Below, piece after piece: positions 33,023 through 60,211 of a stretch of DNA of 64,000 bases. A program made the translations under genes and the position numbers. Position 1 is the first letter of the stretch. Every line of letters begins with the position of its first letter. Below the pieces are notes generated by a model that saw only the letters and a program-made list of their open reading frames with translations, searched no databases and was not told where the DNA came from. The stretch spans positions 128-64,127 of the forward strand of contig SVGX01000003.1 of NCBI GenBank assembly GCA_015056105.1, given 5' to 3'. The DNA is from Clostridiales bacterium (GTDB taxonomy: Bacteria > Bacillota > Clostridia > Christensenellales > CAG-138).

Positions 33023-33353
33023 TGGTCAATCCCGGGTTTCAAGCCGTTTTCCGTTGTTTGCATCCGCGGCGGTCAGGGCCCTGCCGTTGCCGGCGGCCGC
33101 GGTTCCGTGAAATCAGCCGCTTTGGTTTTTTGATATTACGAAGGCATTGATACCGTTCCGCAAAGGACCGCAAAATATATCACGCCGGATTTTTACCAGA
33201 TATGCATAAACAAGACAGCGGCGGCATATATTTGAAACAGTGCTGCCGCACAAATCGCAGCATCCGTTTGCCGCGGTGTGAACACCGTTCAAAACCCCGG
33301 CCTGCGGGGGAAAACCATAACATCGTCTTAACACTTTGCGGGAGGATAAAATC

Positions 33354-35498
33354 ATGGTAAAAACGCTCCGAAAGATCTTTGCAGCCGTAACGGTACTTTG
33401 CCTGAGCATCGCGGCTCTGCCGATCCCGGCTTTGGCTGCCGGGGACAGCCTTGCAACGACTGCCGCTGCCACGACCAGCACCGTGACCGATGAGGATGGC
33501 AATACCGTTGTGACCGTGACCGTTGAAAAGATAACCCATGGCACAACTGCCGAAGGTGTAACCGTGGAGAGGAAGGAAACCCACTCCGATATCACGAAAA
33601 CCGATCCCGACGGCAATGTGCTGGGCACAGGCTGTATGGATGAGGGTGTGGAGCACAGGAAATGGGATGAAGCGGTGAAGCCCGGCGAAGAGATGCGCGA
33701 AGTGAACGTGGAACTCAAGCCGGGAGAGATCACTGCGGGCTCCGCAGAGGAGACTGTCATCGGTGTCACGGGCGATGAACAGCAGGGCCCGGATGATAAA
33801 GACTATGACTTCACCACCACCGCCGCCACGGTCGATCGCACTGTTACGGCAGAGACCGCGGAGGCAGACATCACCGTGGATAAAGTCACTACAGATCTTG
33901 AGTCCGTTGCGGCGGATGATTATGAGGGAAAGGATCCCAATGTAATGGGCCCTGCCCTGAACTTTGTGGCGGGCACGGCCGATACCGTTCCCAAGCCTGA
34001 GGAGGAAGGCTACGACTACCAGCTCGTAGGCTTTGGCGATGCAACCAATGAGCTTAAGGTGCTGCGCGATTATATTACTTACAAGAAGGTCGACGGCAAG
34101 CCGGTGACCGATGCGGACGGCAACTTCATCATTGAGAAAATCGAAACGAAAGTGGATAATACGCCGATGCAGATCGCCCTTCGCAAGGATGAAAACGGAG
34201 AATATGCGTATTTCTTCGGATACTGTATCGATTCGGATACCGAAACCAAGGATGGCGCATGGTATAAAGTCTCCAATCTGGAGGACAATGATTATTACCC
34301 GGATCCGGATTCCGCTGCCAAGCTTCGCACCATTGTGTCCAACGGCTACTGGGGCACAGAAAACGGCATGGGTTCCATTGCGCAAATCAAGATGTTGATG
34401 AAAGAAGCCTGCGGTCCGGATGCTGTTATTACGGTTGAAACGGATGACAAGGGCGGTAAAGCTACCTATAAAATTGCGGATATTATCGACGGCTTGACCG
34501 AATCGGAAGCGCTGGCCGCCACGCAGGCTGCCATCTGGTGTTTTGCCAACGGCGATTCAAACACAAGGGATGGCAAAGATGGTTTCATTGCCCATGGCCC
34601 CGTCAATGTATATAAACCCAATCCGAACAGAAACGCCTATGCGCGGGAATATGTACCGGAAAGCGATGCCAGGGCAATGGCCGTGTTCAACTGGCTGCGC
34701 AGCCTTGATCCCGTTGCCGACACCGCAGAAGATATTGCCACCGTTATTAATGAGAAAAATGCTGTGGACAATATGTCGCTGACCGTGCACGACAAAGCGG
34801 AGGATCATGCCTGCAATATGGATGACAATGCCGATAACGATGTTTACAATGCCGATCTGAATTTTACACTGGCGTTTGTGCCGGATCCGGAAAAGGATGA
34901 TCTGCTGGTGTATCTGCTGGATAAGGATGGCAATCCCATCAATGATATGGATGGCGATCCTGTCATCAGGCGCCTTGCAGGCAGGAATTCCGAGGGCAGA
35001 ACCGCCGATTCCATCGAGCCCGATGAAAACGGCGTTTACACCCTGACGGATCTGCAGCTGAGCGAGAATGCAGATCTCAAATTTGATCTGCGCCTTGAAG
35101 GTACCCAGTACCTGAAGGAAGGCGTTTATATCTATACCGCACACGGCGGCAGCGACAAGTCCCAGTCCATCGTCGGCATAGCGCAAGGCACGCAAACGGT
35201 GGATATTTCCTTCGGCATGACCGTAAAGTTCGAGGTGGATGAAACCAGGCATGTTGTTGCGGAACGCGTTTGGCATACCGAAAGCGACCTTGGGAGCGAA
35301 ACGCCCGGGCCCGATGAAGCACCACCCGCACCCCCGGAGGAAGAACCTTCCCGCCTCGGTGAGACAGACAAAGAAGTGTATCTGGCAGATCCCGCAAAGA
35401 CCGGCGATGCGTCCTTTGTGTTTCTGGGCATGGCGGCTGCCGGTGCGGTAGGGCTGGCGGTCACCTGCATCCCGGGCCGCAAAGCGAAGGAAAACTGA
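33354..35498 (+). CDS. Cys-Gln thioester-domain (TED) surface adhesin with sortase sorting signal
   Basis: Signal peptide MVKTLRKIFAAVTVLCLSIAALPIPALA. GYCIDSD (thioester Cys context) and TQAAIWCF (TQxA[IV]W Gln motif). The C-terminus is PAKTGD plus hydrophobic FVFLGMAAAGAVGLAV plus RKAKEN. Confidence 0.8.
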   Translation: MVKTLRKIFAAVTVLCLSIAALPIPALAAGDSLATTAAATTSTVTDEDGNTVVTVTVEKITHGTTAEGVTVERKETHSDITKTDPDGNVLGTGCMDEGVEHRKWDEAVKPGEEMREVNVELKPGEITAGSAEETVIGVTGDEQQGPDDKDYDFTTTAATVDRTVTAETAEADITVDKVTTDLESVAADDYEGKDPNVMGPALNFVAGTADTVPKPEEEGYDYQLVGFGDATNELKVLRDYITYKKVDGKPVTDADGNFIIEKIETKVDNTPMQIALRKDENGEYAYFFGYCIDSDTETKDGAWYKVSNLEDNDYYPDPDSAAKLRTIVSNGYWGTENGMGSIAQIKMLMKEACGPDAVITVETDDKGGKATYKIADIIDGLTESEALAATQAAIWCFANGDSNTRDGKDGFIAHGPVNVYKPNPNRNAYAREYVPESDARAMAVFNWLRSLDPVADTAEDIATVINEKNAVDNMSLTVHDKAEDHACNMDDNADNDVYNADLNFTLAFVPDPEKDDLLVYLLDKDGNPINDMDGDPVIRRLAGRNSEGRTADSIEPDENGVYTLTDLQLSENADLKFDLRLEGTQYLKEGVYIYTAHGGSDKSQSIVGIAQGTQTVDISFGMTVKFEVDETRHVVAERVWHTESDLGSETPGPDEAPPAPPEEEPSRLGETDKEVYLADPAKTGDASFVFLGMAAAGAVGLAVTCIPGRKAKEN

Positions 35499-35663
35499 AA
35501 AACCGCGTGAAAAGGGATCATTTTAAGAGGATTGCGTTTTTCGCAGTCCTCTGCTCCGTTGGGAAACATGGAGCGTGACGGAATATGCCGCATCAAAAGC
35601 GTTCGGGATACCGCGTACAAGCGGCAGCGCCGCTGCGCGGGGCTATGCGGTTTTCGGGAGGTT

Positions 35664-36506
35664 ATGAATGGAAACATGATTCGAAAGATAATGATTGCTG
35701 TGTTCGGTTTGATGCTGGCAGTGAGCCTTACCCGGTTAGCGGCAATAGAAAGGCAGGAAAATGTGAGCAGCAGGGATTATGCGGAGGCGGTACGGCTTGT
35801 GCAGGCCCCGTCCCCCACTGTACCGGCACATTTGCCGGCGTCTGCGGCCGTGCCCGGCAGGACGGCCGGCCCGGAGCCCGGGCCAGCCGTGGCCGATGAT
35901 GCTGCCGATCCCGAGATCCATGCGCTGCAGCTTATGGATATTGAGGCGCTGCGGGAGGTAAACCGGGATGTGATGGGCTGGATCCGTATCCCCGATACGG
36001 ATATCAACTATCCTTTGCTTCGCGGGGAGGACAATGCACATTATCTCAAATATAACTGGAAGAATAAACCCAGCGCCGCCGGCGCCATCTTTATGGAGCA
36101 TGAAAATGCGGCGGATTTCAGTGATTTCAACACCATCATTTACGGCCATAATATGCGCAGCGGATCCATGTTCGGCGGCCTCAAAGCGTATCGCAGCCGA
36201 TCTTACTGGGAGGCACATCCGTCGATTTATATTCGCCATGACCATGGCGTTTGGCGTTATGATATCTTTGCTGCCCACAGGGTCCGGGTGGGAACGATCA
36301 CATACGCCATGCAAATCAAAGAATCCGATCAGCGGGAGGAATTCATTCGCTTTGCGTTGGATCATTCCGAAATCGATACGGGGATCGAGCCTGCTGCCGG
36401 GGATCACATTCTGACATTGTCGACCTGTACCGGCGATTACAGCACCCGATGGGTCGTACAGGGTGTGCTCAATGAAGCGCAGTCTTATGACGGGGAAACA
36501 CCTTAA
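35664..36506 (+). CDS. srtB: class B sortase
   Basis: TM anchor, NRDVMGWIRIPDTDINYPLLRGEDNAHYL, IYGHNMRSGSMF and TLSTC catalytic Cys motifs. Start at the ATG at 35664 after GGGAGG. Confidence 0.85.
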   Translation: MNGNMIRKIMIAVFGLMLAVSLTRLAAIERQENVSSRDYAEAVRLVQAPSPTVPAHLPASAAVPGRTAGPEPGPAVADDAADPEIHALQLMDIEALREVNRDVMGWIRIPDTDINYPLLRGEDNAHYLKYNWKNKPSAAGAIFMEHENAADFSDFNTIIYGHNMRSGSMFGGLKAYRSRSYWEAHPSIYIRHDHGVWRYDIFAAHRVRVGTITYAMQIKESDQREEFIRFALDHSEIDTGIEPAAGDHILTLSTCTGDYSTRWVVQGVLNEAQSYDGETP

Positions 36507-36921
36507 ATACGGTGGGATGGCAGGATACGGCTTCTGCGCCTGCAAAAGCCGTTCGCCGGTCATGCTGCGCCCGCGGTCGGTTCTCTGATCGTCCCCGCGG
36601 CACCTGAGAATGCACGCTGCACACGCGGTGATGCGGCGATCTTCGCTCTGCTTTTCTCCGTTTTGTGTGTGAAGAGCTGAATAAAAAATGAATAACAAAA
36701 TGAAACGATATTGCCCGCAGCAAAACGCTGCGGGCATATTGTCGTAAAAACGGGACTCTTTTGCACGTTTTGTCCCGCGGTACTTGCTTTCGGCACGAGC
36801 GCTGTAGTATGATGCAAAAGGGGATTTCTGCCGAAAATATGCTGCCCTTGGCGGCTTTTGCCCGGGGAACATCCTCTTGTATTTCGGAATATCATCATCT
36901 TTTTTTAAGGAACAGATCTCT

Positions 36922-38532
36922 ATGAAAAAAATCGTTGCCGCAAGTATCGTCCTCTGCCTTCTTCTTTGCCCGTTAACCGCTCTTGCCGCCGCCCTTACCG
37001 GCGTGAACATCAGCCAGACGGCACAGGCGGAGGATGCGCTTTATGTGTTCTTCGATGTGACCGATGAAACCGGCGCGCCCATTGCGGGCATCGGCGCGGA
37101 GGATGTGAGCATCTCCCTCGGCGGCCGGGATTTCGCGTCCAAAGTCGGCACGGTGGGCGGCAGCGGCCTTGGCGTGGGCTATGTGTTCGCGGTGGATATC
37201 TCCCGCTCGCTGAATGAAAAGCAGTTTGCCTATGTGCGCGAAGCCATCGGTGCGTGGATCGGCGCCATGGGCGAAAAGGATATGGCATCCATCCTCACCT
37301 TCGGGGATGAGATCACCATGCTCACCGATTTTACCGCCGATACCGATGCGCTTCTTTCCACCGTGGAGGGGATCTCCCCCACCGACGGCACAACGCAGCT
37401 GTATAACGGCATCATCCGCGCGCTGGATGTGGCAAAGCGCCAGAGTGCGGAGCTGCCTCTTCGCCGGGTGCTCGTCATCCTTTCCGACGGTATGGATGAC
37501 TATCCCGCCGGTGCCACCATGGCGGAGGTGACCGCCAAAGCGGAAGATGCGGGTGTTCCCATCTATGCGGTGGGCGTAAAGGGAAAAAACAACCAGAGCG
37601 AGCTCAACGAGCTTGGCAGCGTGGCAAGGCTTTCCGGCGGCGAGCTGTACCTGACGGAGCAGGACCAGCTGCGGGGTGGTTATGAGACCGTGTTTGACCG
37701 CATCCTGAACGGCTATGTGGCGGCTGTCGCCCTTGATGGCGCCGCAGCCGACGGCAGCGAGCAGGGGCTCATCCTTTCCGTGAAGCAGGGCAGCGTGTTT
37801 GTGGAGGATGGCGTGGATGTGCGTCTGAAGGCAGTGGCGGCAGCCACCGCAGCGCCGACGGAAGCGCCGGCAAATACTCCCGCGCCCACAAAGACGCCTG
37901 CGGCGATACCCACGACCGCGCCTTCGGCCCAAACGCCCAAGGCAAAGGGCGGCATGGCGCTGCCTGTTATTATTGCCGTTGCTGCGGCAGCGGCGGCAGG
38001 CATCGTGGTGCTCATCCTTTCCGCCAAAAAGCGCGGGGCGAAAAAGGCGGAGCAGGAGAAGCTGGAGGAGATCCGCCGCCGGCAGAAGCTGGATGAGCTG
38101 ATCGATGTGAAGGCGCCAAGGTCCGGCGGCAGCGCAACGGGTGTCCTTACGGACCGCACCGTGGCCCTTGATGATGAAAAGACCGTATCGCTGGGCGGCC
38201 CGCGGCAGCGGCGGCTCATGCTTTCCCTGGAGGATACGCGCAGCGGCGGCGAGCGCCGCTACACAGCGCCCATCGGCCGGGAACTGACGGTGGGCAGAAA
38301 GGCCGGCGAGGTGGATATCGAGATCCGTGACCGCTCCGTCAGCGGGCGGCACTGCGCCTTTGCGCTCAGAAATGAGCGGCTCTTCCTTTGGGATCTTAAT
38401 TCCACCAACGGCACTTATCTGATGACGCCGAAAGGAAAACAGCGCATCGGCGGCGAGGGCGCCCCGGTGAAAAACGGCGATGTGATCCTGCTTGGCGAAA
38501 CGGAGCTGGCGATTATCGTTTACGAGGATTGA
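36922..38532 (+). CDS. bitopic membrane protein: extracellular vWA domain (intact MIDAS), TM helix, cytoplasmic FHA domain
   Basis: Signal peptide; VFAVDISRS (DxSxS), GTTQLY and LSDGMDD for vWA; a P/T/A-rich linker; TM ALPVIIAVAAAAAAGIVVLIL. The FHA reads LTVGRKAGEVDIEIRDRSVSGRHCAF...DLNSTNGTYL, with the canonical GR, SxxH and NG residues. Confidence 0.8.
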   Translation: MKKIVAASIVLCLLLCPLTALAAALTGVNISQTAQAEDALYVFFDVTDETGAPIAGIGAEDVSISLGGRDFASKVGTVGGSGLGVGYVFAVDISRSLNEKQFAYVREAIGAWIGAMGEKDMASILTFGDEITMLTDFTADTDALLSTVEGISPTDGTTQLYNGIIRALDVAKRQSAELPLRRVLVILSDGMDDYPAGATMAEVTAKAEDAGVPIYAVGVKGKNNQSELNELGSVARLSGGELYLTEQDQLRGGYETVFDRILNGYVAAVALDGAAADGSEQGLILSVKQGSVFVEDGVDVRLKAVAAATAAPTEAPANTPAPTKTPAAIPTTAPSAQTPKAKGGMALPVIIAVAAAAAAGIVVLILSAKKRGAKKAEQEKLEEIRRRQKLDELIDVKAPRSGGSATGVLTDRTVALDDEKTVSLGGPRQRRLMLSLEDTRSGGERRYTAPIGRELTVGRKAGEVDIEIRDRSVSGRHCAFALRNERLFLWDLNSTNGTYLMTPKGKQRIGGEGAPVKNGDVILLGETELAIIVYED

Positions 38533-38601: not shown

Positions 38602-41600
38602 ATGCGGTTTGTGATCATGGCCTATGCAAACGGCGCGTATGAGGAGTTTCGTTTGCCCGCGCTGAACGATGCGGATCATGAAATCCTGCTTTCTGCGGTG
38701 CGCTTTGGTTTGAAAAAAGACATTGCCCTGCGCTTTGAGGTGCTTTCCGGGGAGTGGAAAGTGCTTGGCGGCAAGGGCTATGCCCTGTTTGACCGGCAGG
38801 AGCAAAAGGAACAGCTGCCCCTTGCGGACGAGCTGACCTTCGGCGTCATCAGCGGTGCGGATCATGTGACGCTGATCGTGACCGGCGAGGCGGAAAGTCT
38901 GCCCTGCTTCCAGAAAATCGATATCTCCCGCCTGCGGGAGCTCACGGTGGGAAAACAGGAGGGCTGCCATATCCGCTATGATTTCCGTGGCCTTGTGAGC
39001 AAGCGCCATGCGGTGCTGGCAAGGGAGGCGGATGGTTCCATGCGCCTTACGGACCAAAGCACCAACGGCGTGTATGTGAACGGACAGCGGATACAGGGGG
39101 CAAGGCGCCTTGCTTTTGGCGATGTGATCAACATCCTCGGCCTGAAGCTCGTCTTCCTTGGCGATGCCCTCGGCGTGTATGCCCTTGGCAGGCAAGTGGA
39201 GATCGATCCGCGCATCCATATGCCCTATGTGCTGCCCCAAAGCGGCGAAAAGCAGCCCCCGGCGGAGGAGAGCCGCTTCAAGCGCGCCCCCCGCGCGGTG
39301 GAGGAGCTGCACCGGGAGCCGGTGGAGATCGAAGCGCCGCCGCCGCCCAACAAGCCGAAAAAGCAGCCGCTGCTGCTGACCATCGGCCCTGCCTTTACTA
39401 TGATGATCCCCATGCTGCTCGGTTCCGGCATGGCGATCTTCAGCGCCGGTGCCACCGGTATGGGAAGAAGTCCCTTCATGTTCACCGGCATTATCACGGC
39501 GGTATCCTCCGCTGCCATCGGCGTGATGTGGGCGCTCATCAACATGCGCCATGCGAAAAAGCAGCTTCGGGAGGATGAACTGCACCGCTTCAATGCTTAC
39601 CGGGATTATCTTGTCAGGATCGCGGATGAACTTAACGAGCAGTATCGGGATAACGCAAAGACCCTTAATGACCGCTATCCCTCCGCGGAGGCCTGTCTTC
39701 GTTACGGGGCGGATCCCACAAGGCTCTGGAACCGTAACTTTACCCATGATGACCTTCTTTTTGTGCGCCTTGGCATGGGCAGCATGCCCTTCCAGGTTCC
39801 CATCGGCATCCCTAAGGAGCGCTTTACGCTGGTGGATGATTCCCTTTCCGAAAAACCGAAGCAGATCTTTGATAGTTTCAGCACCCTGAGGGATGTGCCC
39901 GTGGGGGTGGACCTTGGGGCCGATCCCCTCTGGGGCATTTACGGCGGCGGCAGCATGGCGGAGGGCATCTCCGTGGCCCGCAGCATGGCTGTGCAGCTTG
40001 CGGCCAATACCTGCTATACGGATGTGAAGCTCGTCTTCCTTTACGAGAAGCAGTATGAGCGGGAATTTGCATTTGCAAAGTGGCTTCCCCATGTCTGGTC
40101 GGAGGATAAGAAGGTCAGGTATGTGGCTTCCGATAAAAACGAAGTCAGCGATGTGCTCTATGCCCTCGGCAGCACCCTCCGCATCCGTGCAGAGCAGGAA
40201 AACAGGCGCGGCGCCGCCCGCCCGCACTATGTGGTCTTTGTGTGCGACCCCGATCTTCTTGAAGGGGAACCGGCGGCAAAATATCTTCTTGAACCTGTGG
40301 AGGGGCTGGGCGTATCCACGGTGCTCATCGCGCCGGGCTATGAAGCGCTGCCCAACAGCTGCACCAACCTCATCGAACGGGATAAGCATTTTTGCGGTTT
40401 CTACGATGTGAGCACCGTGGAATCGAAAAAACGCGCCGTTGCCTTTGATGATGTAAGCGCCTTTGAGGCGGAGCGCTTTGCCCGCTGGCTTTCCGGCATT
40501 CGGGTAAAGGAGCTTGAGAGCGGCGGCGAGCTGGCGGATGCCGTTACCTTCTTCGATCTGTACGGCGTGCAGTCGTTGGCGGAGTTTGGCGTCATCGACC
40601 GTTGGCGCAAAAACAGAACTTATGAAAACATGCGCGCGCTGGTGGGCCAAAAGGCCGGCGGTGCCGATCTGTACCTTGATATCCACGAAAAATACCACGG
40701 ACCCCACGGCCTTGTGGCGGGCACCACGGGCAGCGGCAAAAGCGAAACGCTGCAGACCTATATGCTCTCCCTTGCCCTCAATTTCAGTCCGCTGGATGTG
40801 GGCTTCTTCGTCATCGACTACAAGGGCGGCGGCATGGCCAACCTGTTTTCCGACCTGCCTCACATGCTCGGGCAGATCTCCAACCTTTCCGGTAACCAGG
40901 TGCGCCGCGCCATGGTCAGCATCAAGAGCGAGATCAAGCGCCGCCAGCGCATTTTCGGCGAGTATGATGTGAACCATCTCGATCAGTATACGCGGCTGCT
41001 CAAAAACGGCGAAGCCGCCGTGCCGATCCCGCACATGGTCATTGTGATCGATGAGTTTGCGGAGCTCAAACGGGAAGAACCCGACTTTATGCGGGAACTG
41101 ATCAGCGTGGCGCAGGTGGGCCGAAGCCTGGGCATCCACCTGATCCTTGCCACCCAGAAGCCTGCCGGCACCGTGGATGACAACATCTGGAGCAACTCAA
41201 AATTCAAGCTCTGCCTCCGGGTACAGGATAAGCAGGACAGCATGGATATGCTCAAAAAGCCGGACGCTGCCTATATCACCCGGGCGGGCCGCTGCTACCT
41301 GCAGGTGGGCAACGATGAGATTTTCGAGCTTTTCCAGTCCGGCTGGAGCGGCGCGGCCTATGATGAGGATATGGCTGCCGCCAAGGCGGAAGTTGCCACC
41401 ATGCTTTCCAAAACGGGCCAGCCCAGCCTTGTAGGCAACCGCAGCAAGCTAAAATGGAAGGAGCAGAAGCGCCTCGGTTGGTTCAGCGAGATCTACGATT
41501 GCATCCTTGCCGCCGCCAAAGCGGAGAATAAGTCCCTTGATGCCATCCTTAAGGATGCACACGATAAGGATGCGGCGGTGGAAGCGGTGTTTGCCATGCT

Positions 41601-43566
41601 GGCCAATAAGGGGTATGAATACCCCGTCAGCCGGTATAACGCCAAGCGGCTGGAGGATTTCATGCTGCTGGCCGCCAAGGCGCAGGGCGTTGGTGATAAG
41701 GCAAAAACCCTTGATATCATCCGCAAAACCGCAGCCCTTGGCGGAATCAAACTGCCGGAGCTGAAGGAAAAGACCCAGCTTGCGGCGGTGGTGGAATACC
41801 TGAAGGAGCAGGCGGAAAAAAGCGGCATGAAGGCGGATCTGACGCTGTGGTTGCCGGTGCTGCCGGCGCGGCTGCACCTTGCGGAGCTTCAGGGCTTTGC
41901 GGGCGGTGCCTTCCGCAATGGCTGGCAGCCTGTTCTGCCCGGCCGCGAGTGGGAGCTGCGAGCCCCCGTGGGCCTTTGTGATGACCCGGTGAACCAGGCG
42001 CAGACGCCGGTGGAGGTGAACTTTGCGACCGATGGCCACATCGCCGTGTGCGGCATGGTGGTGAGCGGCAAAAGCACCTTCCTGCAGACGCTGCTCTACT
42101 CGCTGGCAAACCGCTATTCGCCGGAATATGTCAACTTCTATATCCTTGATTACAGCAGCAGGATGCTCGGCTGCTTCAAGGATCTCAAGCATTGCGGCGG
42201 CGTGGTCTTTGAAGACCGGAGCGACCGTACCGGCAAGCTCTTCGCCATGCTCAAAAAGGAGCTGGAACGCCGCAAAAAGCGCTTTGAGGGCGGCAACTAC
42301 GCCCAGTATGTGCGTGCCAACGGCCCCGTGGAGCCGGCGCTGCTGCTTGTGATCGACGGCTTTGCCAACTTTAAGGAAAAAACCGATAACCGCTATGAAG
42401 ATATGCTCATCGAGCTTTCCCGCGAGGGTGCCAATTACGGCATCTTCCTCGTGCTGTCGGCGGGCGGCTTTGGCGCGGCGGAGATCCAGAACCGCATCGG
42501 CGAAAACATCAAGACCGTGTTTGCGCTGCAGCTTGGCGACAGGCTCAAATACAGCGATACGCTGCGCCAGCGGGTGGATGTGATGCCGGAGGCGGATACC
42601 CTTGGCCGCGGCCTTGCGCTGGTGCAGGGAACGCCCCTTGAATTCCAGACCGCCCTTGCCCTTCCCGCAGAGGATGATTACGAACGGGCGGAGAAGATGG
42701 CGGCGGTGTTCGCGCGGATGAACGAAGCGTATCCGGGCAGGGGCGCAAAGCCCATCCCGGAGATCCCGGAAAAGCCCACTTTTGCTCTCCTGCGGGAAAA
42801 TGAGGGCTACAAAGTGCTGCTTGAAACGCCGGACCGCCTGCCCCTCGGCTACGTGGCGGCGGATGCGGATATTGCCGGCATCGATCTCAAACAATGCTTT
42901 ACGTACCTTGTGGCGGGGCAGGGCCGCACCGGCAAGAGCAATGCCCTTGCCTGCCTGATGCAGGCCGCCCATGACCGGGGCGGCAGCATCGCCGTGATCG
43001 ACAGCCGCAAAGGCGAGCTTGCCGCCATGGCGAAGGAGCTTGGCGCGCGCTATGTTTCCACCGAGGAAGAGCTTGCCGCCTTTGCGGGCGAGCTGTTTGA
43101 GCAGATGCGCGAGCGCAACAGCCTGAAGCGGGCGCTGCGGGCAAAGGGCGCGTCGGATGAGGAGATCTATGCGGCGATGCTCCAGTATCCCGCCTGCTAT
43201 CTCTTCATCGATGACATGGCGGAGCTGACGGAAACGCTGTATTCCGGCTCTGCGCAGATGCAGAACATCATCGGCTTTATGGAGAATTTCTTCGATAAGG
43301 GCGCGCTGCATAACATGTATGTGTTCGGCGCCGTGCCGCTTTCCGGCTACAGCATGGCCCTTGGCTACCGGGCTTTCCGCCTTGCGGCGGAACGGAAGAC
43401 CGGCCTGCTGCTTGGCGGCGATGCGGCGCGCCAGCAGCTGTTCGATCTTTCCGCGCTGCCCTATTCCGAGCAGACGAAGAAGTTCAGGCCGGGCATCGCG
43501 CTGCTGCCGCAGGACCATGAGCGGGAGCGGCCCGAAAAGATCGTGCTGCCCATTGCAAGAGGATGA
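38602..43566 (+). CDS. essC: type VII secretion FtsK/SpoIIIE-family ATPase EssC (YukB-like)
   Basis: 1654 aa. N-terminal FHA-like modules (LTVGKQEGCHIRYDFRGLVSKRHAVL...STNGVYVNG), 2 TM helices and three P-loop domains: GTTGSGKSE with VIVIDEFAEL, GMVVSGKST, and GQGRTGKSN with LFIDDMAEL. Confidence 0.9.
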   Translation: MRFVIMAYANGAYEEFRLPALNDADHEILLSAVRFGLKKDIALRFEVLSGEWKVLGGKGYALFDRQEQKEQLPLADELTFGVISGADHVTLIVTGEAESLPCFQKIDISRLRELTVGKQEGCHIRYDFRGLVSKRHAVLAREADGSMRLTDQSTNGVYVNGQRIQGARRLAFGDVINILGLKLVFLGDALGVYALGRQVEIDPRIHMPYVLPQSGEKQPPAEESRFKRAPRAVEELHREPVEIEAPPPPNKPKKQPLLLTIGPAFTMMIPMLLGSGMAIFSAGATGMGRSPFMFTGIITAVSSAAIGVMWALINMRHAKKQLREDELHRFNAYRDYLVRIADELNEQYRDNAKTLNDRYPSAEACLRYGADPTRLWNRNFTHDDLLFVRLGMGSMPFQVPIGIPKERFTLVDDSLSEKPKQIFDSFSTLRDVPVGVDLGADPLWGIYGGGSMAEGISVARSMAVQLAANTCYTDVKLVFLYEKQYEREFAFAKWLPHVWSEDKKVRYVASDKNEVSDVLYALGSTLRIRAEQENRRGAARPHYVVFVCDPDLLEGEPAAKYLLEPVEGLGVSTVLIAPGYEALPNSCTNLIERDKHFCGFYDVSTVESKKRAVAFDDVSAFEAERFARWLSGIRVKELESGGELADAVTFFDLYGVQSLAEFGVIDRWRKNRTYENMRALVGQKAGGADLYLDIHEKYHGPHGLVAGTTGSGKSETLQTYMLSLALNFSPLDVGFFVIDYKGGGMANLFSDLPHMLGQISNLSGNQVRRAMVSIKSEIKRRQRIFGEYDVNHLDQYTRLLKNGEAAVPIPHMVIVIDEFAELKREEPDFMRELISVAQVGRSLGIHLILATQKPAGTVDDNIWSNSKFKLCLRVQDKQDSMDMLKKPDAAYITRAGRCYLQVGNDEIFELFQSGWSGAAYDEDMAAAKAEVATMLSKTGQPSLVGNRSKLKWKEQKRLGWFSEIYDCILAAAKAENKSLDAILKDAHDKDAAVEAVFAMLANKGYEYPVSRYNAKRLEDFMLLAAKAQGVGDKAKTLDIIRKTAALGGIKLPELKEKTQLAAVVEYLKEQAEKSGMKADLTLWLPVLPARLHLAELQGFAGGAFRNGWQPVLPGREWELRAPVGLCDDPVNQAQTPVEVNFATDGHIAVCGMVVSGKSTFLQTLLYSLANRYSPEYVNFYILDYSSRMLGCFKDLKHCGGVVFEDRSDRTGKLFAMLKKELERRKKRFEGGNYAQYVRANGPVEPALLLVIDGFANFKEKTDNRYEDMLIELSREGANYGIFLVLSAGGFGAAEIQNRIGENIKTVFALQLGDRLKYSDTLRQRVDVMPEADTLGRGLALVQGTPLEFQTALALPAEDDYERAEKMAAVFARMNEAYPGRGAKPIPEIPEKPTFALLRENEGYKVLLETPDRLPLGYVAADADIAGIDLKQCFTYLVAGQGRTGKSNALACLMQAAHDRGGSIAVIDSRKGELAAMAKELGARYVSTEEELAAFAGELFEQMRERNSLKRALRAKGASDEEIYAAMLQYPACYLFIDDMAELTETLYSGSAQMQNIIGFMENFFDKGALHNMYVFGAVPLSGYSMALGYRAFRLAAERKTGLLLGGDAARQQLFDLSALPYSEQTKKFRPGIALLPQDHERERPEKIVLPIARG

Positions 43567-46196
43567 AAAAACATGATGCGGCGCCTTTACAGGCGCCGCA
43601 GCGGAGGATCACTGTGACAAAGCGTTATATCGCCGCCGCTTTGGCGGCATGCATGCTGCTGCTTGCGGGCTGCAGGAAGGGGCCGGAGCCGGCAGAGAAC
43701 CCATTCGATGCGGCAGCGGAGCTTGGCAAGGCCGAGCAGCTGTTTCTCGAAGGAAACTATGAAGAGGTGATCCTCACCCTTGAAACGGTGCTGGAGATCG
43801 AGCCTGCAAACGTGCAGGGTTATCTGCGCCTTTCGGACGCCTATCTGCTCCGCGGCGACAGGGAAAAAGCGCTGCAGCTTCTGCAAAAGGGCTTTGAATT
43901 AACGGGAGATGAGCAGATCGCCCAGCGCATCAAGGGCATGACGGAAGCGATCGAAGGCATTGTGCAGGTTTCCGGCGGCGATGAGGCATCAGCGCGGCAT
44001 ACGCTTCTTCTTAACGATAAGGGAGAGGTTTTCTTCATCGGCAATATGCAGCAGCGTGTCGGCGGCATCACCTATGATAACTTTGCCATGACGCCGAAAA
44101 AGATAGAGGGCCTGAGCAACATCCGCCGGGTCTTTGCGGGCAACCGCGGCTTCTTTGTGGGCAACTATGTGGATCTTGCCATCACCGAAAACGATGAGCT
44201 TTATATCTGGGGCCTTGATGCGGACAGGTTTTTTTCCGCCGATGACCACAACGGCAGCAAGCCTGCCCGGCTGATGGGGGATGTAAAGGATGCCTTCGTG
44301 GCGGATCACAACATTTATGTGATCAAAAACAGCGGCGAGCTTGTGGCCTTCGGCACAAACCATGACGGCCAGAAGGGCACCGGCAGCGCATATACGGAAG
44401 AGTTTTACGACCAGCAATGGATGCACGATTATGAGGAGTATCTGCGTGCCGCGCATGTGATGGACGGCGTTCAGAAAGTAAAGGCGGGCTTTGGGCGTTT
44501 TCAGGATGAACTTCTTGGCGATTCGGAAGGTTACTTCGCCTTTGCCCTTGATGAAGCAAACACCCTTTACGGCTGGGGTACCTTCGGCATTCGCGATGAG
44601 GGCGGCCGCATCGTAAAATGCTGCCTCAACGAGCCCACGGTGCTTGCAAGCGATGTGAAGGATATGGATGCCACCGGAAGCGATCTTTATATCGTGACCG
44701 CGGAGGGCAAACTGCAGAAAACGGAGCTTGAAGCCATCGGCAGGGATGGCCCCCTGTGGCAGGATATTGAGACCGGCACCGTGCCCATGGAAAAGGTATC
44801 CTGCGGCACTGCCCATTTTGTGGCGATGGATGCCCTCGGCGTGGTCTATACCGGCGGCGAAAACACGCTGGGCCAGCTTGGCGTGCCGGCAGAGACCACC
44901 GTGATGACCTATGAAGGCGAAAGCCTGAAGCCCCTTGGGGAAACGCGCTTTCTTGATGCGGTGGCATCGGATGAAAGCAGCTATGCCATCGATGGGAACG
45001 GCATGCTCCACTCCTGGGGCAACAACGATTGCGGGCAGCTTGGCAACGGCCGCAGGGGTCTGCAGAAAAATGCGGCCGAACCCACATTTTTGATGAGCGG
45101 CGTGAAAAGCACGCACGCCTACGGCGCGCGGGAAGTCTTTATCCTGATGGAAAACGGCGATCTCTATATTGCCGGCAGCGGCCATGTTGTGGAAAAGGTC
45201 ACCGGCGGCATGACGGAGGAAGCCTTTACCCCCGTTAAGATCATGGAGCAGGTCGCCATGGTGGAGCCGCAGGACGGCGGCGTGGTAAAAACCGACAACA
45301 CCCTTTGGCTTCCTACGGAAACCGGCTATGAAATGACCATGGAGGATGTGATCTTCTACACATCTTCCGATGAAAACAGCTTTGTGATCCGCGGCGACAA
45401 CAGCCTTTGGGGCTGGGGTAAAAACTATGGCGGGCAGCTGGGCCTTGGCTGGTACAACGATGTGGGCGCGGTGGAGGACAACTCCGTTTCGGAGCCCACG
45501 CACATCATGGACAACGTTGCCTCGGTATCGCTGATGTACAACGGCCCCTCCTCTATCGTGCAGGGCGGCGCCACCTTTATCCTCACGCTGGATGGTGCGC
45601 TGTACCATTGCGGCTACAGGGGGAACGCCACCATGTCAACGCCGGAAAATTACTGGGAACTTCCGACGGAAGCCATGTTTGCCCTTACACCGGAAAAGCT
45701 GGATGAGGATGTTGCCTATGTGTTCGGCTTCCGCGGTACCGATAAGATGTTTTATGTGAAGGAAAACGGCGAGCTCATCAGCTGGTCGGATTATACGGGC
45801 GGCATCTTCTATGACAGCGGGGCGCAAGATTATATGGAGAATGAGCACCGCAGCAGCATCCGCAGCAATGTCGCCATGGCGCAGGAGAGCATCCTTGTTG
45901 ACAGGGACGGAAAATGCTATATCTTCGGCGGACAGGTGATGGTAGGGTTCCTCGGCCTTGATGAAACGAAGTGGAAAGAAAAGGCAGCGGAATACGGCGA
46001 GGGCAAGCTCATCTGCCAGCTGATGCTGGAGGATGTGAAAGCTGTGGCCACATCCTGGGGCGGCGATGATGAAAGCTATTATGCCGTCAAAACCAACGGC
46101 GATCTTTATGTTTGGGGCAACAATATTTACGGCCAGCTGGGCCTTGGCGAAGCGGGCATCACCGAAAATATCTTTGCGGTGGCGCTCCCCGAATAA
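43563..46196 (+). CDS. lipoprotein with N-terminal TPR repeats and RCC1-type beta-propeller repeats
   Basis: ATGA overlap with the essC stop. Lipobox LLLAGC. TPR (EGNYEEVILTLETVLEIEPANVQGYLRLSDAYLLRGD). RCC1 signatures WGNNDCGQLGNG, WGWGKNYGGQLGLG, VWGNNIYGQLGLG and GENTLGQLG. Confidence 0.8.
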   Translation: MKKHDAAPLQAPQRRITVTKRYIAAALAACMLLLAGCRKGPEPAENPFDAAAELGKAEQLFLEGNYEEVILTLETVLEIEPANVQGYLRLSDAYLLRGDREKALQLLQKGFELTGDEQIAQRIKGMTEAIEGIVQVSGGDEASARHTLLLNDKGEVFFIGNMQQRVGGITYDNFAMTPKKIEGLSNIRRVFAGNRGFFVGNYVDLAITENDELYIWGLDADRFFSADDHNGSKPARLMGDVKDAFVADHNIYVIKNSGELVAFGTNHDGQKGTGSAYTEEFYDQQWMHDYEEYLRAAHVMDGVQKVKAGFGRFQDELLGDSEGYFAFALDEANTLYGWGTFGIRDEGGRIVKCCLNEPTVLASDVKDMDATGSDLYIVTAEGKLQKTELEAIGRDGPLWQDIETGTVPMEKVSCGTAHFVAMDALGVVYTGGENTLGQLGVPAETTVMTYEGESLKPLGETRFLDAVASDESSYAIDGNGMLHSWGNNDCGQLGNGRRGLQKNAAEPTFLMSGVKSTHAYGAREVFILMENGDLYIAGSGHVVEKVTGGMTEEAFTPVKIMEQVAMVEPQDGGVVKTDNTLWLPTETGYEMTMEDVIFYTSSDENSFVIRGDNSLWGWGKNYGGQLGLGWYNDVGAVEDNSVSEPTHIMDNVASVSLMYNGPSSIVQGGATFILTLDGALYHCGYRGNATMSTPENYWELPTEAMFALTPEKLDEDVAYVFGFRGTDKMFYVKENGELISWSDYTGGIFYDSGAQDYMENEHRSSIRSNVAMAQESILVDRDGKCYIFGGQVMVGFLGLDETKWKEKAAEYGEGKLICQLMLEDVKAVATSWGGDDESYYAVKTNGDLYVWGNNIYGQLGLGEAGITENIFAVALPE

Positions 46197-46217: not shown

Positions 46218-46466
46218 ATGATCATGGTGGATGTGCAGGTGCCGGCGCTGGATGCGTCCTATGATTTTTCCCTTTCGGAGCATGTGCGGGTCAGCGAGCT
46301 CATTGAGGAGATCGCCGAGATGATCTGCCAGCGGGAGAGGCTTCTTGCCCCGCGGGATATGGAAGGCTTCGCCCTTTGCGCCCCCGGCACGGGAGCTGTT
46401 CTGCCCAAGGGGCTCACCCTTTCCGAGTGCGGCGTGACAACGGGCAGCAAGCTGATGCTGCTTTAA
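46218..46466 (+). CDS. esaB: YukD/EsaB-like ubiquitin-fold T7SS protein
   Basis: 82 aa. VDVQVPALDASYDFSLSEHVRVSELIEEI...LSECGVTTGSKLMLL fits the EsaB/YukD pattern in size, beta-grasp periodicity and context. Confidence 0.7.
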   Translation: MIMVDVQVPALDASYDFSLSEHVRVSELIEEIAEMICQRERLLAPRDMEGFALCAPGTGAVLPKGLTLSECGVTTGSKLMLL

Positions 46467-46569: not shown

Positions 46570-46863
46570 ATGGATGTTTTTTTCTCGGCACATACCGGCG
46601 GTTTGCTGCAGGCGCAGGCGGAGTATGCCCGCTGCAGCGGCGTGCTGAGCGAAAAACTGCAGGAAGTTGAGCTTCTGAGCCGTCGCCTTGTCCCGATGAG
46701 GGGGCTGGAGGACTGCGCTGCGCAGCTGATCAAAAGCAAGGCGCAGCTGGAGGAAGCGCTTTTTACCCTTGGGCGGCTGCATGCCGTGCTGGAGGATGCG
46801 CTTACATCCTACCACGCCGCGGAGCGCAGCATCCAAGCGCGTTGCACCGATGGGGAAAGATGA
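46570..46863 (+). CDS. small helical-hairpin protein without WxG (T7SS-associated candidate)
   Basis: 97 aa with GAGGTG RBS, predicted all-helical with heptad-like pattern, and a C-proximal SYHAAE motif shared with neighbours. Confidence 0.55.
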   Translation: MDVFFSAHTGGLLQAQAEYARCSGVLSEKLQEVELLSRRLVPMRGLEDCAAQLIKSKAQLEEALFTLGRLHAVLEDALTSYHAAERSIQARCTDGER

Positions 46864-46923: not shown

Positions 46924-47229
46924 ATGGCAGGAGTCTTTGTTGAAGTCGATACAGCGCAGATGGAGCGGGATATTGAATCCGTAAAAGAGCGGCTTCAAGC
47001 GGTGCGCAGTGCGCTTGAAGCGGTATATGCGCAGATAGAAGAGCTGGACGCCATGTGGGATGGCCCCGCAAACGATGCATTCCGCAAACAGTTTGCGTCC
47101 GACCGGGAGGAGTTTGCTGCCATGTGCAAGGAGATGGACAGCCTCGTGGAAAGCCTGACTTACGCCAAGTGGGAATACGAAAAGTGCGAAAGCCGGGTGA
47201 ATGCAGCGGTGGCTGCTATTCGGGTCTAA
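46924..47229 (+). CDS. WXG100 family protein
   Basis: 101 aa with central MWDGPANDAF and C-proximal EYEKCE. Strong RBS. Confidence 0.75.
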   Translation: MAGVFVEVDTAQMERDIESVKERLQAVRSALEAVYAQIEELDAMWDGPANDAFRKQFASDREEFAAMCKEMDSLVESLTYAKWEYEKCESRVNAAVAAIRV

Positions 47230-47239
47230 GGAGGAAAGC

Positions 47240-47671
47240 ATGGAACACAAAGAGATCAACATCCCCTTTACCAACCCCGATTCCGGCAAGAGCCTGCTGT
47301 GGTTCCCGGAAAACCTGCTGGAGCAGATCGGCTCTGCCCTTACACACCTGAAAACAGCCACGATGACCATCCGTACCTCTCCTGAGGTAATGCAGGCAAA
47401 GGCTGCCGAGGTGCATACCGCTGCGGCGGAGATCCGCCGGGAGTTTGAAGATCTGATCCGCGCTGTGGAAAGAACATCCGCCTATTGGAACGGCAACGCG
47501 GCAGAGCAGCACCGCCGGCGCGCCGCTGCCATGAAACCCAAAGCGGAGGATATGATCGCCTGCCTTGAGCAGCATGCGGCAAACCTGCAGCAAATCGCAG
47601 GCCTTTATACGGCGGCGGAAACAAAGGCGAAAAGCACGAGCGCTGCACTGCCCACGGATGCCATCGAGTAG
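47240..47671 (+). CDS. WXG100-like protein with about 40-aa N-terminal extension
   Basis: Start after AAGGAGGAAAGC. YWNGNAAEQH motif, LYTAAE, and C-terminal tail ALPTDAIE. Confidence 0.7.
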   Translation: MEHKEINIPFTNPDSGKSLLWFPENLLEQIGSALTHLKTATMTIRTSPEVMQAKAAEVHTAAAEIRREFEDLIRAVERTSAYWNGNAAEQHRRRAAAMKPKAEDMIACLEQHAANLQQIAGLYTAAETKAKSTSAALPTDAIE

Positions 47672-47682
47672 GAGGAAAGCGG

Positions 47683-47997
47683 ATGAAAACGAAAGCCGAG
47701 ATCGAGTTCAATTTTGAACAGGCGCGCCGCAGGGCTGCAGAGCTGGAGGAGATCGCACAGGATCTTGAAAGCCTTGCCAAAAGGGATATGGAGAACACCA
47801 GGGCGGAGCTTGCCGCCGCCTGGAAGGGGGAGAGCGCACAGCTTTTCTGCGGCAAAAGCGATAAGCTGCAGCAGGATATCGCTTCAACGGCAAAGGAGCT
47901 TGCGGCCGTAGCCGGCTCCATCCGTGAGATCGCCCGCCTTGTTTATGAGGCGGAGATGCAGGCGCTTCAGATCGCCGCACAGCGGGACTATGTATAA
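47683..47997 (+). CDS. WXG100 family protein
   Basis: 104 aa with AWKGESAQLF motif. AGGAGGAAAGCGG RBS. Confidence 0.7.
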   Translation: MKTKAEIEFNFEQARRRAAELEEIAQDLESLAKRDMENTRAELAAAWKGESAQLFCGKSDKLQQDIASTAKELAAVAGSIREIARLVYEAEMQALQIAAQRDYV

Positions 47998-48094
47998 CGA
48001 TCGCTTCGGCGCGAAGCGATGAAGAGGAAACCGGCGCTCCTTTTAGGGGGCGTAACAATACAGAGACCATCAATCCAACAGGAGGAAGAGAACC

Positions 48095-48400
48095 ATGGCA
48101 AACGGATATGTTGTTACCACTGCAGCCCTTCGCCGCACGGCACAGGAGCTCAGGGATCTGAACAGCCAGTACAGGACCCGTGTGGAATCCCTTGCGGGCC
48201 TTGAGCAGGAGCTGCGCAGCATGTGGGAGGGCGAGGCAAACATCGCGTTTCAGCATGCATTTGCCAGCGATAAGGTAAACCTTGACAATTTCTATTCCGT
48301 CATTGAGCGGTATGTGCAGGCGCTTGAGACTGCTGCTGCGGAATATGAAAAGGCAGAAGCGCAGGCCACCCAGACCGCAACCACCCGCACCTATCGCTGA
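48095..48400 (+). CDS. WXG100 family protein
   Basis: 101 aa with MWEGEANIAF motif and EYEKAE. CAGGAGGAAG RBS. Confidence 0.75.
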   Translation: MANGYVVTTAALRRTAQELRDLNSQYRTRVESLAGLEQELRSMWEGEANIAFQHAFASDKVNLDNFYSVIERYVQALETAAAEYEKAEAQATQTATTRTYR

Positions 48401-48439
48401 TAGGGTGCAGCCGGAGCAACGAGCGAAAGGAGACAAATC

Positions 48440-48754
48440 ATGGATGGTATTTTGAAAGTAACGCCTGCTGCACTGCGGGCAAAATCCGGTGAATTCGATC
48501 AGAACAGGGCTGCTGTGCGCGGTCTCATCGAGCAGATGAATGCCAAGGTCAGCGGTATGAACTCCGTTTGGCAGGGCGATGCGGCCACGGCCTATCAGAC
48601 TTCCTATAACGGCCTTCGCGATGACATTGAGCGAATGGACCGCATGATCGCCGAGCATGTGCGCGATCTCAACGAGCTGGCGGATGTTTATGCCAGGGCG
48701 GAGAGCGCAGTGGAAGCTGCCGCGCAGGCGCTTCCCAAGGATGCGATCCAGTAA
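48440..48754 (+). CDS. WXG100 family protein (most EsxA-like member)
   Basis: 104 aa. ILKVTPAALRAKSGEF..., VWQGDAATAY with W at residue 44, VYARAE, and C-terminal tail ALPKDAIQ. Confidence 0.8.
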   Translation: MDGILKVTPAALRAKSGEFDQNRAAVRGLIEQMNAKVSGMNSVWQGDAATAYQTSYNGLRDDIERMDRMIAEHVRDLNELADVYARAESAVEAAAQALPKDAIQ

Positions 48755-52119: not shown

Positions 52120-52142
52120 GGCATTGCCGGAAAGTTGACCCC

Positions 52143-52958: not shown

Positions 52959-52982
52959 GCGGCGGGAGAGGAGGGCTATACC

Positions 52983-54632: not shown

Positions 54633-54654
54633 AACGGTCCCGAAAGGAACTTTT

Positions 54655-58989: not shown

Positions 58990-59310
58990 ATGAGCGGAAA
59001 TACTCTTATGCTGATCGGGATCGCTATGGCGGCCCTTGGCGTGCTTCTGCTGTGTTTGCAGCTTGCTGCCATGAAAAACCGGGGAAAACGGGCAAAAAAA
59101 GCATCATCGGCGGCGGATCTGCCCGCGGCTCCCGTTGTGTCAGCCCCGCGCCGGGCCGAAAAACCGGCTGCTGCAGCTGTGGCGGATGAAGCCACCGTGA
59201 AGCTTTCCTATGCAGCGGATGAAGAGAAGAACGTGAAACTTTCTTCCGCGGCGGAAAATACCGCTGCAAGCGGGAATGAAGCGGATCAGACTGTCCGTCT
59301 GGAGGGATAA
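58990..59310 (+). CDS. small single-pass membrane protein with three [TN]V[KR]L repeats in a cytoplasmic tail
   Basis: 106 aa with good RBS. TM LMLIGIAMAALGVLLLCLQLAA, then KNRGKRAKK, then a low-complexity tail with EATVKLS, KNVKLSS and QTVRLEG. Confidence 0.55.
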   Translation: MSGNTLMLIGIAMAALGVLLLCLQLAAMKNRGKRAKKASSAADLPAAPVVSAPRRAEKPAAAAVADEATVKLSYAADEEKNVKLSSAAENTAASGNEADQTVRLEG

Positions 59311-60116: not shown

Positions 60117-60211
60117 CGGTTCGCCATAAAATCGAAACAACACCGATAAAGCAGCAATTTGTAACAGCAGAACTGTGGCGTTTGCAGCTTGATCATACAC
60201 GGAGGGATCCA

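Follow-up and report, generated by a model that had tools for sequence, protein, structure and literature searches.

Control of type VII secretion systems (T7SS) by kinases and forkhead-associated (FHA) proteins has already been proposed, and has partly been shown for related systems, so that it is not a new principle. Garrett, Higginson & Palmer (2024, PMC11217815) defined the subtypes T7SSc-j, in which kinases are frequent, as are PPM phosphatases and stand-alone FHA proteins (TsxJ, composed of DUF6382 and FHA); T7SSe/f/j carry FHA proteins, kinases, and phosphatases, the FHA domain of the secretion ATPase EssC keeps phosphothreonine motifs in the kinase-bearing subtypes, and threonine-phosphorylation control as in type VI secretion systems (T6SS) was proposed for these T7SS. 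The sole component with a von Willebrand factor A (vWA) domain in that study, TscE, is cytoplasmic (PMC11217815). In Actinomycetes, the epibiont-sensing Esr pathway uses a beta-propeller sensor at the cell surface together with MoxR, a vWA protein, a kinase with its phosphatase, and an FHA protein (bioRxiv 2026, PMC13622651). The pathway places a phosphate on a threonine within the disordered part of this FHA protein, and one copy gates Esx secretion post-translationally; 40% of Esr clusters adjoin esx genes, with the FHA output sometimes fused to EccC, and Esr has been reported as confined to Actinomycetes, with Esr1 acting on transcription (PMC13622651). In the T6SS, Fha binds phosphothreonine 14 (pT14) of TssL and thereby activates the system (PMC3953482), and the kinase PpkA carries an extracellular vWA domain (PMC3224232). 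Here we analyse a stretch of 64,000 nucleotides (nt) from the metagenome-assembled genome of an uncultured gut or rumen 'Clostridiales bacterium' (GCA_015056105.1, contig SVGX01000003.1, positions 128 to 64,127; hereafter the window), in which the gene at positions 36922-38532, directly upstream of essC, encodes a vWA domain and an FHA domain joined by a single transmembrane (TM) helix (the vWA-FHA protein). Such a fused membrane-spanning vWA-FHA protein in a T7SS locus is not described in PMC11217815, PMC13622651, PMC3224232, or PMC3953482. We hold, with moderate confidence in this general statement and with less in each individual step, that it serves as a phospho-dependent regulatory adaptor of this T7SS.

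The product (NCBI MBE5784366.1) carries only the annotation 'VWA domain-containing protein' at NCBI. The parts of the gene and its protein are given below, where pLDDT is the predicted local distance difference test score of the AlphaFold2 model.

36922-38532, + strand: vWA-TM-FHA gene, 536 amino acids (aa), stop-free translation.
36922-36987, + strand: signal peptide, aa 1-22, with hydrophobic core 4-22 and cleavage between ALA and A as read by inspection.
36997-37836, + strand: predicted extracellular domain, aa 26-305, a beta-sandwich (27-77 and 265-301) wrapping the vWA fold (85-263).
37837-37959, + strand: P/T/A-rich, predicted extracellular stalk, aa 306-346, disordered (pLDDT below 50).
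37960-38028, + strand: single TM helix, aa 347-369, from hydropathy and AlphaFold2, followed by KKRGAKK (positive-inside).
38029-38103, + strand: predicted cytosolic juxtamembrane helix, aa 370-394, with the conserved motif I-K-R-R-x-x-L-D-x-L-I-D-V.
38131-38196, + strand: three T-x-x-L motifs in a disordered linker (T406/L409, T413/L416, and D419-x-T421/L424), recognised by column conservation.
38215-38526, + strand: FHA domain, aa 432-535, with G458-R459, S474-x-x-H477, and S494-T-N496-G-T.

The vWA domain matches Pfam VWA (PF00092) over residues 88-236 (E 2.2e-18; 67.5 bits, cut-off 23.8) and contains a complete metal ion-dependent adhesion site (MIDAS) formed by D92, S94, S96, T158, and D189 (in VDISRS, GTTQ, and SDGMDD), and the C-terminal domain matches Pfam FHA (PF00498) over residues 456-525 (E 3.5e-14; 53.4 bits, cut-off 20.7). 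The signal peptide and TM helix were called from a hydropathy profile read by inspection, and the AxA pattern at the end of the signal peptide is kept across the homologue alignment. An alternative lipoprotein N-terminus (LLLC16) was ruled out, its -1 position being unlike a lipobox. Because an N-terminal signal is followed by a single TM helix and then by KKRGAKK, the vWA domain is predicted to be outside the cell and the FHA domain inside; on this topology the two domains of one chain lie on opposite sides of the membrane and therefore cannot bind each other. An earlier note on this DNA, made by a model from the letters and their open reading frames (ORFs), had already described the signal peptide, the vWA domain with intact MIDAS, the P/T/A linker, and one TM helix, all of which were confirmed by Pfam, hydropathy, AlphaFold2, and the alignment; hydropathy and AlphaFold2 likewise agree with the orientation that it implied, and the FHA pocket residues that it listed (GR, SGRH, and TNG) are present at 458-459, 474-477, and in STNGT at 494-498.

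Residue conservation was examined in an alignment of 15 sequences reaching down to 28% identity. In the vWA domain, the MIDAS positions D92, S94, S96, T158, and S188-D189-G190 either do not vary or reach a conservation of at least 90%, and DxSxS is present in 137 of 141 representatives (450-700 aa) of the wider vWA-TM-FHA family. In the FHA domain, G458, R459, and S494-T-N496-G-T498 are invariant, with S474 and H477 at least 90% conserved, so that the pocket is kept in orthologues, contrary to the loss of conservation that the earlier note had named as a possible objection. From these residues, a metal site is predicted for the vWA domain, and the FHA domain is predicted to be a canonical phosphothreonine reader. 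The AlphaFold2 model built from the same alignment has a mean pLDDT of 78.6 (about 90 across the vWA fold, 85-263), with residues 312-346 of the stalk disordered, the TM helix running on in the cytosol to residue 394, a disordered linker at 394-430 (pLDDT below 50), and the FHA sandwich at 432-535. Foldseek searches against the PDB matched ITIH1, ArnB, integrin I domains (TM-score 0.75-0.78, normalised to target), and the ArnA FHA domain, and the vWA fold also resembles the vWA domains of TRAP/MIC2 and the anthrax receptor. The closest PDB sequence relative of the FHA domain is ArnA (E 5.6e-6), followed by GarA (PDB 5a8i, 8s05, and 2kfu). ArnA is thus the best PDB sequence match to the FHA domain, and ArnB is among the top fold matches to the vWA domain plus beta-sandwich; however, the two Sulfolobus proteins are soluble, cytoplasmic, and regulate the archaellum, whereas the window encodes one membrane-spanning chain. 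ArnA (FHA) and ArnB (vWA) bind each other in a phosphorylation-dependent and kinase-dependent manner (PMC6509490, PMC12852372).

The disordered linker between the membrane and the FHA domain contains a new detail of this analysis, namely three conserved TxxL motifs preceding the FHA domain. Among 11 members of the window clade, T406 and L409 are each present in 10, T413 in 8, L416 in 9, D419 in 10, and both T421 and L424 in all 11, which makes the threonines and the leucines at +3 the best-conserved columns of an otherwise variable linker. FHA domains often prefer phosphothreonine with a hydrophobic residue at +3. When the window linker was shuffled, three TxxL motifs were reached in 0.5% of trials. 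With linkers delimited by an FHA-only hidden Markov model (HMM), the density of Txx[LI] was 2.19 per 100 aa in T7SS-linked vWA-FHA proteins vs 0.86 in the family at large, and two or more such motifs were found in 13 of 27 T7SS-linked proteins vs 16 of 135 in the wider family (Fisher p 5.7e-5); with the window clade left out, 7 of 21 T7SS-linked proteins had two or more (p = 0.018). Similar motifs occur elsewhere in these systems, i.e., in the tail of a 106-aa TM protein of the locus (ATVKL and QTVRL), in the juxtamembrane segment of its RCC1 kinase (DKTTKL), in a distal vWA-FHA protein of Anaeromicropila herbilytica (L091 in our numbering of loci; DKTVVL and DKTIML), in the trypsin-FHA and TM-FHA proteins of L093 (GETSLL, GETTLL, and DDTTVL), and in the published TseJ, where GTTVL occurs twice just upstream of the FHA domain. 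The TxxL threonines are therefore put forward as candidate kinase sites and candidate phosphothreonine docking sites. GarA/OdhI (PDB 2kfu and 6i2p) is an FHA phospho-switch of Actinobacteria: Hanks-type kinases phosphorylate an ETTS motif that precedes the FHA domain within a disordered stretch, and the protein's own FHA domain then binds this motif. The window protein is similar in that its threonine motifs also stand in a disordered stretch immediately ahead of the FHA domain, but GarA is small and soluble, regulates metabolic enzymes, and has no membrane anchor or ectodomain. The AlphaFold2 model contains no confident contact between linker and FHA domain and is uninformative on docking in cis.

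The gene lies 69 nt upstream of essC in the same orientation, with an AGGAGG ribosome-binding site and no terminator predicted between the two genes, and the downstream product (38602-43566) scores 1030 bits with the NCBIfam EssC equivalog TIGR03928, above its cut-off of 778. In each of the eight window-clade loci (the window plus L001, L086, L087, L088, L090, L094, and the identical L002) the vWA-FHA gene is located 0-2 genes upstream of essC, its products in the seven related loci being 47-70% identical to the window protein, so that a place just upstream of essC, as described for the window in the earlier note, holds throughout the clade. Lachnospiraceae, Blautia, Eubacterium, and Ruminococcaceae harbour many EssC relatives (43-50% identity). 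In A. herbilytica and one metagenomic locus, a vWA-TM-FHA protein of the same architecture, about 22-25% identical to that of the window, is encoded at the far end of the T7SS cluster, and in a Ruminococcaceae locus the vWA-TM-FHA gene is replaced by genes for trypsin-TM-FHA, TM-FHA, PP2C, and a kinase. A homologue with 35% identity has no adjacent essC within its short 4.2 kb contig. By examining 80 metagenomic essC loci with home-made HMMs, of which 33 had full flanks (2 kb or more on the upstream side and 7 kb or more on the downstream side), we found vWA-FHA in 14 of the 33 (11 downstream and 3 upstream of essC), trypsin-TM-FHA in 7, another large FHA protein in 2, and none of these in 10. 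A small TM-FHA gene stands directly before essC in 43 of 70 loci, a slot that vWA-FHA fills in the window clade. A trypsin-like protease domain replaces the vWA domain on the same TM-linker-FHA part in L093 (20501-22940) and 12 others (including L114, L118, L136, and L147), and the trypsin-TM-FHA gene is often followed by genes for a small TM-FHA protein, PP2C, and a kinase. Since roughly a third to a half of the related essC loci do without the gene, vWA-FHA is a frequent, exchangeable accessory of these loci and not a core part; and since a constant TM-linker-FHA part carries a variable ectodomain, a receptor or adaptor role is expected.

Beyond these loci, vWA-TM-FHA is a large, unnamed, cross-phylum family, mostly without T7SS linkage. 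A profile search of 1.84 billion representatives yielded 2,429 clusters (at 50% identity) with E <= 1e-30, the top 150 of which are nearly all full length (480-600 aa). The family layout is an N-terminal signal or anchor, a MIDAS vWA domain, one TM helix, and an FHA domain at the C-terminus, into which the window protein fits. Named members come from Blastocatellia (Acidobacteriota) and Desulfovibrio. Distant homologues (28-30% identity) reside in clusters of FHA, vWA-FHA, kinase, PP2C, and trypsin-FHA genes without T7SS. In L003 (3316-13937) and L004, which encode the same protein, the vWA-FHA cluster is directly beside BREX genes (BrxA/B/C/E and PglX), and in L005 (1477-8947) a BrxC/BrxD-family gene lies a few kb downstream of the vWA-FHA cluster. 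PADLOC, which has no model for these homologues, returned no match for them or for the vWA-FHA protein, and its kinase matches were generic; although two distant homologues lie beside BREX genes, we do not label the protein a defence gene. When GTDB species genomes were scanned with the family alignment, no close orthologue was among the matches listed, which were almost only generic FHA proteins in kinase/PP2C loci without EssC.

The remaining genes of the T7SS locus that bear on the role of the vWA-FHA protein are listed below (TPR, tetratricopeptide repeat).

38602-43566, + strand: EssC-type T7SS ATPase, 1654 aa, with FHA domain (113-185), two TM helices, and FtsK/SpoIIIE ATPase domains.
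43563-46196, + strand: lipoprotein with TPR and RCC1 beta-propeller, predicted extracellular; lipobox LLAGC; NCBI start 17 codons later.
46218-46466, + strand: YukD/EsaB ubiquitin-like T7SS protein (PF08817).
46570-46863, + strand: small helical protein, kept after yukD in sister loci.
46924-48754, + strand: five tandem WXG100 genes (PF06013), at 46924-47229, 47201-47671, 47683-47997, 48095-48400, and 48440-48754.
54511-56958, + strand: receptor Ser/Thr kinase with extracellular RCC1 propeller, juxtamembrane DKTTKL, and TM helix 476-494; true start probably near 54655.
56995-58956, + strand: receptor Ser/Thr kinase with extracellular TPR domain, laid out as TsjD.
58990-59310, + strand: 106-aa single-TM protein with ATVKL, KNVKL, and QTVRL in its predicted cytosolic tail.
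59316-60116, + strand: PP2C (PPM) phosphatase.

The T7SS hallmarks EssC, five WXG100 proteins, and YukD are thus accompanied by two receptor Ser/Thr kinases and a PP2C phosphatase, and both Hanks-type kinases appear active from their sequences. The lipoprotein gene adjoins essC directly in the window (the two overlap by 4 nt when the lipoprotein is taken to start at the ATG) and is kept after essC in sister loci; the WXG100 genes are followed by those for a TPR protein, three proteins of no assigned function, the kinases, the 106-aa protein, and PP2C. According to hydropathy, all membrane proteins of the locus other than the polytopic EssC are bitopic. Neither Pfam nor NCBIfam models for EssA, EssB/YukC, and EsaA/YueB matched an ORF of the locus, and because of this absence the locus is, judging from its gene content, not a T7SSb, so that the T7SSb framing of the earlier note has to be dropped. 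With TsxC reference N-termini rebuilt by optical character recognition (OCR) from Fig. S2 of PMC11217815, the N-terminal 590 aa of the ATPase scored 192 bits with TsiC (28% identity), 177 with TseC, 150 with TsjC, 148 with TsfC, 140 with TsdC, and 97 with Staphylococcus aureus EssC, the preference for TsiC over TseC being weak on these OCR-derived references. Gene content is mixed, as the LytTR regulator of the sister loci is shared with T7SSi and the kinase, PP2C, and FHA proteins resemble those of T7SSe/j. Overall, the locus resembles the kinase- and FHA-bearing T7SS variants of PMC11217815.

Comparison with the described systems places the vWA-FHA protein near several of them without equating it with any. 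TsxJ (TseJ/TsfJ/TsjJ) is likewise a stand-alone protein with a C-terminal FHA domain bearing GR, SxxH, and NG, encoded in a locus with a TM kinase (TsjD also has a TPR ectodomain), PPM phosphatase, YukD, and FHA-bearing EssC. However, TsxJ has an N-terminal DUF6382 and either lies in the cytoplasm or crosses the membrane by two TM helices that leave both domains on the inner side, and it is without the vWA domain, signal peptide, and extracellular part that the window protein possesses. No DUF6382 was found in the scanned window ORFs, and Pfam on the vWA-FHA protein gives VWA and FHA alone as its domains. As in Esr, the window has an RCC1 propeller (on the lipoprotein and as a kinase ectodomain), a vWA domain, two kinases, PP2C, and FHA beside essC. 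Esr differs in its MoxR ATPase, separate vWA protein, transglutaminase, and Actinomycetes host, whereas the vWA domain of the window protein is predicted to be extracellular and is fused to FHA via a TM helix, in a Clostridium host. MoxR is a component of Esr and of the Aravind ternary systems. The ORFs scanned in and around the locus, which make up part of those in the window, included neither a MoxR AAA+ ATPase nor a transglutaminase. In the T6SS PpkA/PppA/Fha pathway, a Hanks-type kinase, PP2C, and an FHA protein likewise switch on a secretion machine post-translationally, with FHA binding phosphothreonine on a membrane core protein, but the T6SS belongs to diderm bacteria, its vWA domain is on the kinase rather than the FHA protein, and Fha is soluble, so that the parallel is an analogy only. 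In T7SSb, EssB/YukC resembles the vWA-FHA protein as a bitopic membrane protein partnering the FHA-bearing N-terminus of EssC, but EssB is a pseudokinase and is absent from the window locus.

The adaptor role is suggested because domains, topology, pockets, synteny with essC, co-encoded kinases and PP2C, and conserved threonines point in the same direction. The vWA-FHA protein would be a bitopic membrane adaptor in a signalling cassette built into a non-canonical T7SS operon. The receptor kinases (with RCC1 and TPR ectodomains) would be activated from outside, possibly via contacts of the vWA MIDAS face and the TPR-RCC1 lipoprotein; the MIDAS itself may touch the TPR/RCC1 ectodomains or a target surface. 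The kinases may then phosphorylate the TxxL threonines of vWA-FHA, along with comparable sites in the 106-aa TM protein and in the kinase juxtamembrane segment. These marks would be read by the protein's own FHA domain, either in trans or in cis as GarA does, and by the FHA domain of EssC, and this reading might cluster and assemble EssC, or release it, turning secretion on post-translationally until PP2C resets the switch. The system would thus represent a Gram-positive, T7SS-linked counterpart of the T6SS PpkA/PppA/Fha and actinobacterial Esr pathways. The outside-in adaptor proposed in the earlier note, in which an extracellular ligand or metal-dependent contact is coupled to kinase-dependent assembly with EssC, agrees with the topology, conserved pocket, synteny, kinases and PP2C, and ectodomain swap, but the idea as such is already contained in PMC11217815 and PMC13622651. 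It is possible, although we propose this tentatively and consider it less likely than not, that receptor kinases with beta-propeller or TPR ectodomains, vWA-TM-FHA with a multi-site TxxL docking linker, the small TM protein with similar motifs, and PP2C form a self-contained surface-sensing threonine-phosphorylation pathway that gates an unclassified Clostridial T7SS post-translationally, with vWA-FHA or trypsin-TM-FHA in the place of EssB as membrane partner of the EssC FHA domain and TxxL as a phospho-code shared among T7SS including TseJ. Such a pathway would be the Bacillota equivalent of Esr and of the T6SS pathway.

Several observations weigh against the adaptor role. The steps of the mechanism are all inferred. 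The FHA domain of EssC, which the earlier note had described as FHA-like, is a good match to Pfam (E 1.3e-12) with SxxH and NG invariant across the EssC family, but it has GK for GR, the lysine replacing the phosphate-contacting arginine, in every orthologue and most of the wider EssC family; in addition, the cytosolic EssC segment between the FHA domain and the TM helices contains no threonine. Linker docking is not confident in the AlphaFold2 model (pLDDT below 50), and the TxxL enrichment is modest and was measured among phylogenetically non-independent sequences. A position directly before essC is an exception of the window clade, 10 of the 33 full-flank related loci have no large FHA protein, and most members of the family are not near any T7SS, making a general envelope-signalling role conceivable.

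Among other explanations, the one that fares best, although we consider it unlikely, is that vWA-FHA is a structural core subunit, i.e., a permanent, phosphorylation-independent membrane partner of EssC with the vWA domain as an extracellular ring or conduit. Parallels would be EssB, which binds the FHA domains of EssC, and YscD/PrgH of the type III secretion system, whose cytoplasmic domain has an FHA fold; a second, weaker Pfam match of the vWA-FHA protein to Yop-YscD_cpl (E 1.4e-7), the lack of any polytopic membrane protein in the locus but EssC, the place directly before essC in all eight clade loci, and the occupation of this slot by a small TM-FHA gene in many other loci would all suit such a subunit. 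However, its phosphothreonine pocket shows full conservation, whereas the FHA domains of T7SSb EssC are degenerate and lack the phosphothreonine motifs (0/0/21%; PMC11217815 Table S1). Kinases and PP2C are co-encoded, the ectodomain is swapped for a protease-like domain or absent in related loci, and the family mostly occurs without T7SS, all of which speak against a structural subunit.

Somewhat less probable again is a module for general signalling of envelope state or threat, which would share its location with the T7SS but control something else, for example transcription, cell-wall processes, or a defence response. Distant homologues in T7SS-free clusters (twice next to BREX genes), the occurrence of the family in Acidobacteriota and Desulfovibrio, and the action of Esr1 on transcription (PMC13622651) are in line with this explanation. 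Against it stand the short distance to essC in the same orientation with no intervening terminator, the recurrence of the association in 21 of 33 full-flank essC loci (vWA-FHA and trypsin-FHA together) despite changes in gene order, and the fact that EssC itself keeps an FHA domain with SxxH and NG. A surface adhesin or contact receptor, whose MIDAS vWA binds a ligand on a target cell or host and whose FHA domain merely tethers it to the apparatus so that secretion is positioned by contact with no kinase input, has in its favour the complete five-residue MIDAS, the DxSxS motif found almost throughout the family, a fold like those of integrin I, TRAP/MIC2, and anthrax-receptor vWA domains, and a flexible P/T/A stalk, but it is the least probable of the explanations considered, as it leaves the conserved phosphothreonine pocket, TxxL threonines, and co-encoded kinases and phosphatase unexplained and overlaps with the adaptor role, which already allows ligand input.

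T7SS variants of gut and rumen Clostridia are common in metagenomes, the EssC family giving 309 confirmed matches in one scan, and none has been studied experimentally. If the regulatory adaptor is real, it would show how a Gram-positive secretion weapon fires only on contact or threat, a mode of control that is already known for the T6SS and has just been reported for actinobacterial Esx, and it would provide the first function for an unnamed family of about 2,400 protein clusters. The conserved threonines, FHA pocket, and MIDAS are precise mutational targets, and a cultured relative, A. herbilytica (AP024169), carries the same parts.

Other features of the locus and its relatives were also noted. 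The 106-aa protein may correspond to the single-TM TsxK/TsxH components; a homologue encoded in L086 (7198-7344) ends early, behind the TM helix. The essC gene of L087 (11669-16642) is split into ORFs of 125 and 1512 aa with the break inside the FHA domain, due to a frameshift or assembly error. A LytTR regulator and an approximately 225-aa protein, both of which follow essC in sister loci (L001, L086, L088, L090, L091, L092, and L093 were compared), are absent from the window. The WXG100 ORF at 47201 overlaps the gene before it, its real start probably lying about 50 codons further on, and a run of five WXG100 paralogues is also present in L090. Within the operon, positions 50776-54632 (+ strand) encode a helical protein of 447 aa, a lipoprotein of 271 aa, and an Mbeg1/DUF2974-like (lipase-fold) protein of 549 aa, whose genes are possibly those of effectors and immunity proteins. 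In their place, sister loci encode a protein of about 330-390 aa whose C-terminus is hydrophobic and rich in glycine, and then DUF4176.

FHA domains were found in only two proteins of the window, the vWA-FHA protein and EssC. Upstream of the operon, positions 33336-36506 (+ strand) encode a 720-aa thioester-domain (TED) surface protein with a signal peptide and C-terminal anchor, and a sortase; this adhesin/sortase pair is separated from the vWA-FHA gene by a strong hairpin at 36712-36736 and appears unrelated to the T7SS operon. Downstream, positions 60182-62749 (+ strand) encode an 855-aa secreted protein without a Pfam match, whose C-terminus (GDANCDGEYNLQDVV) looks like a single dockerin-type calcium-binding repeat.

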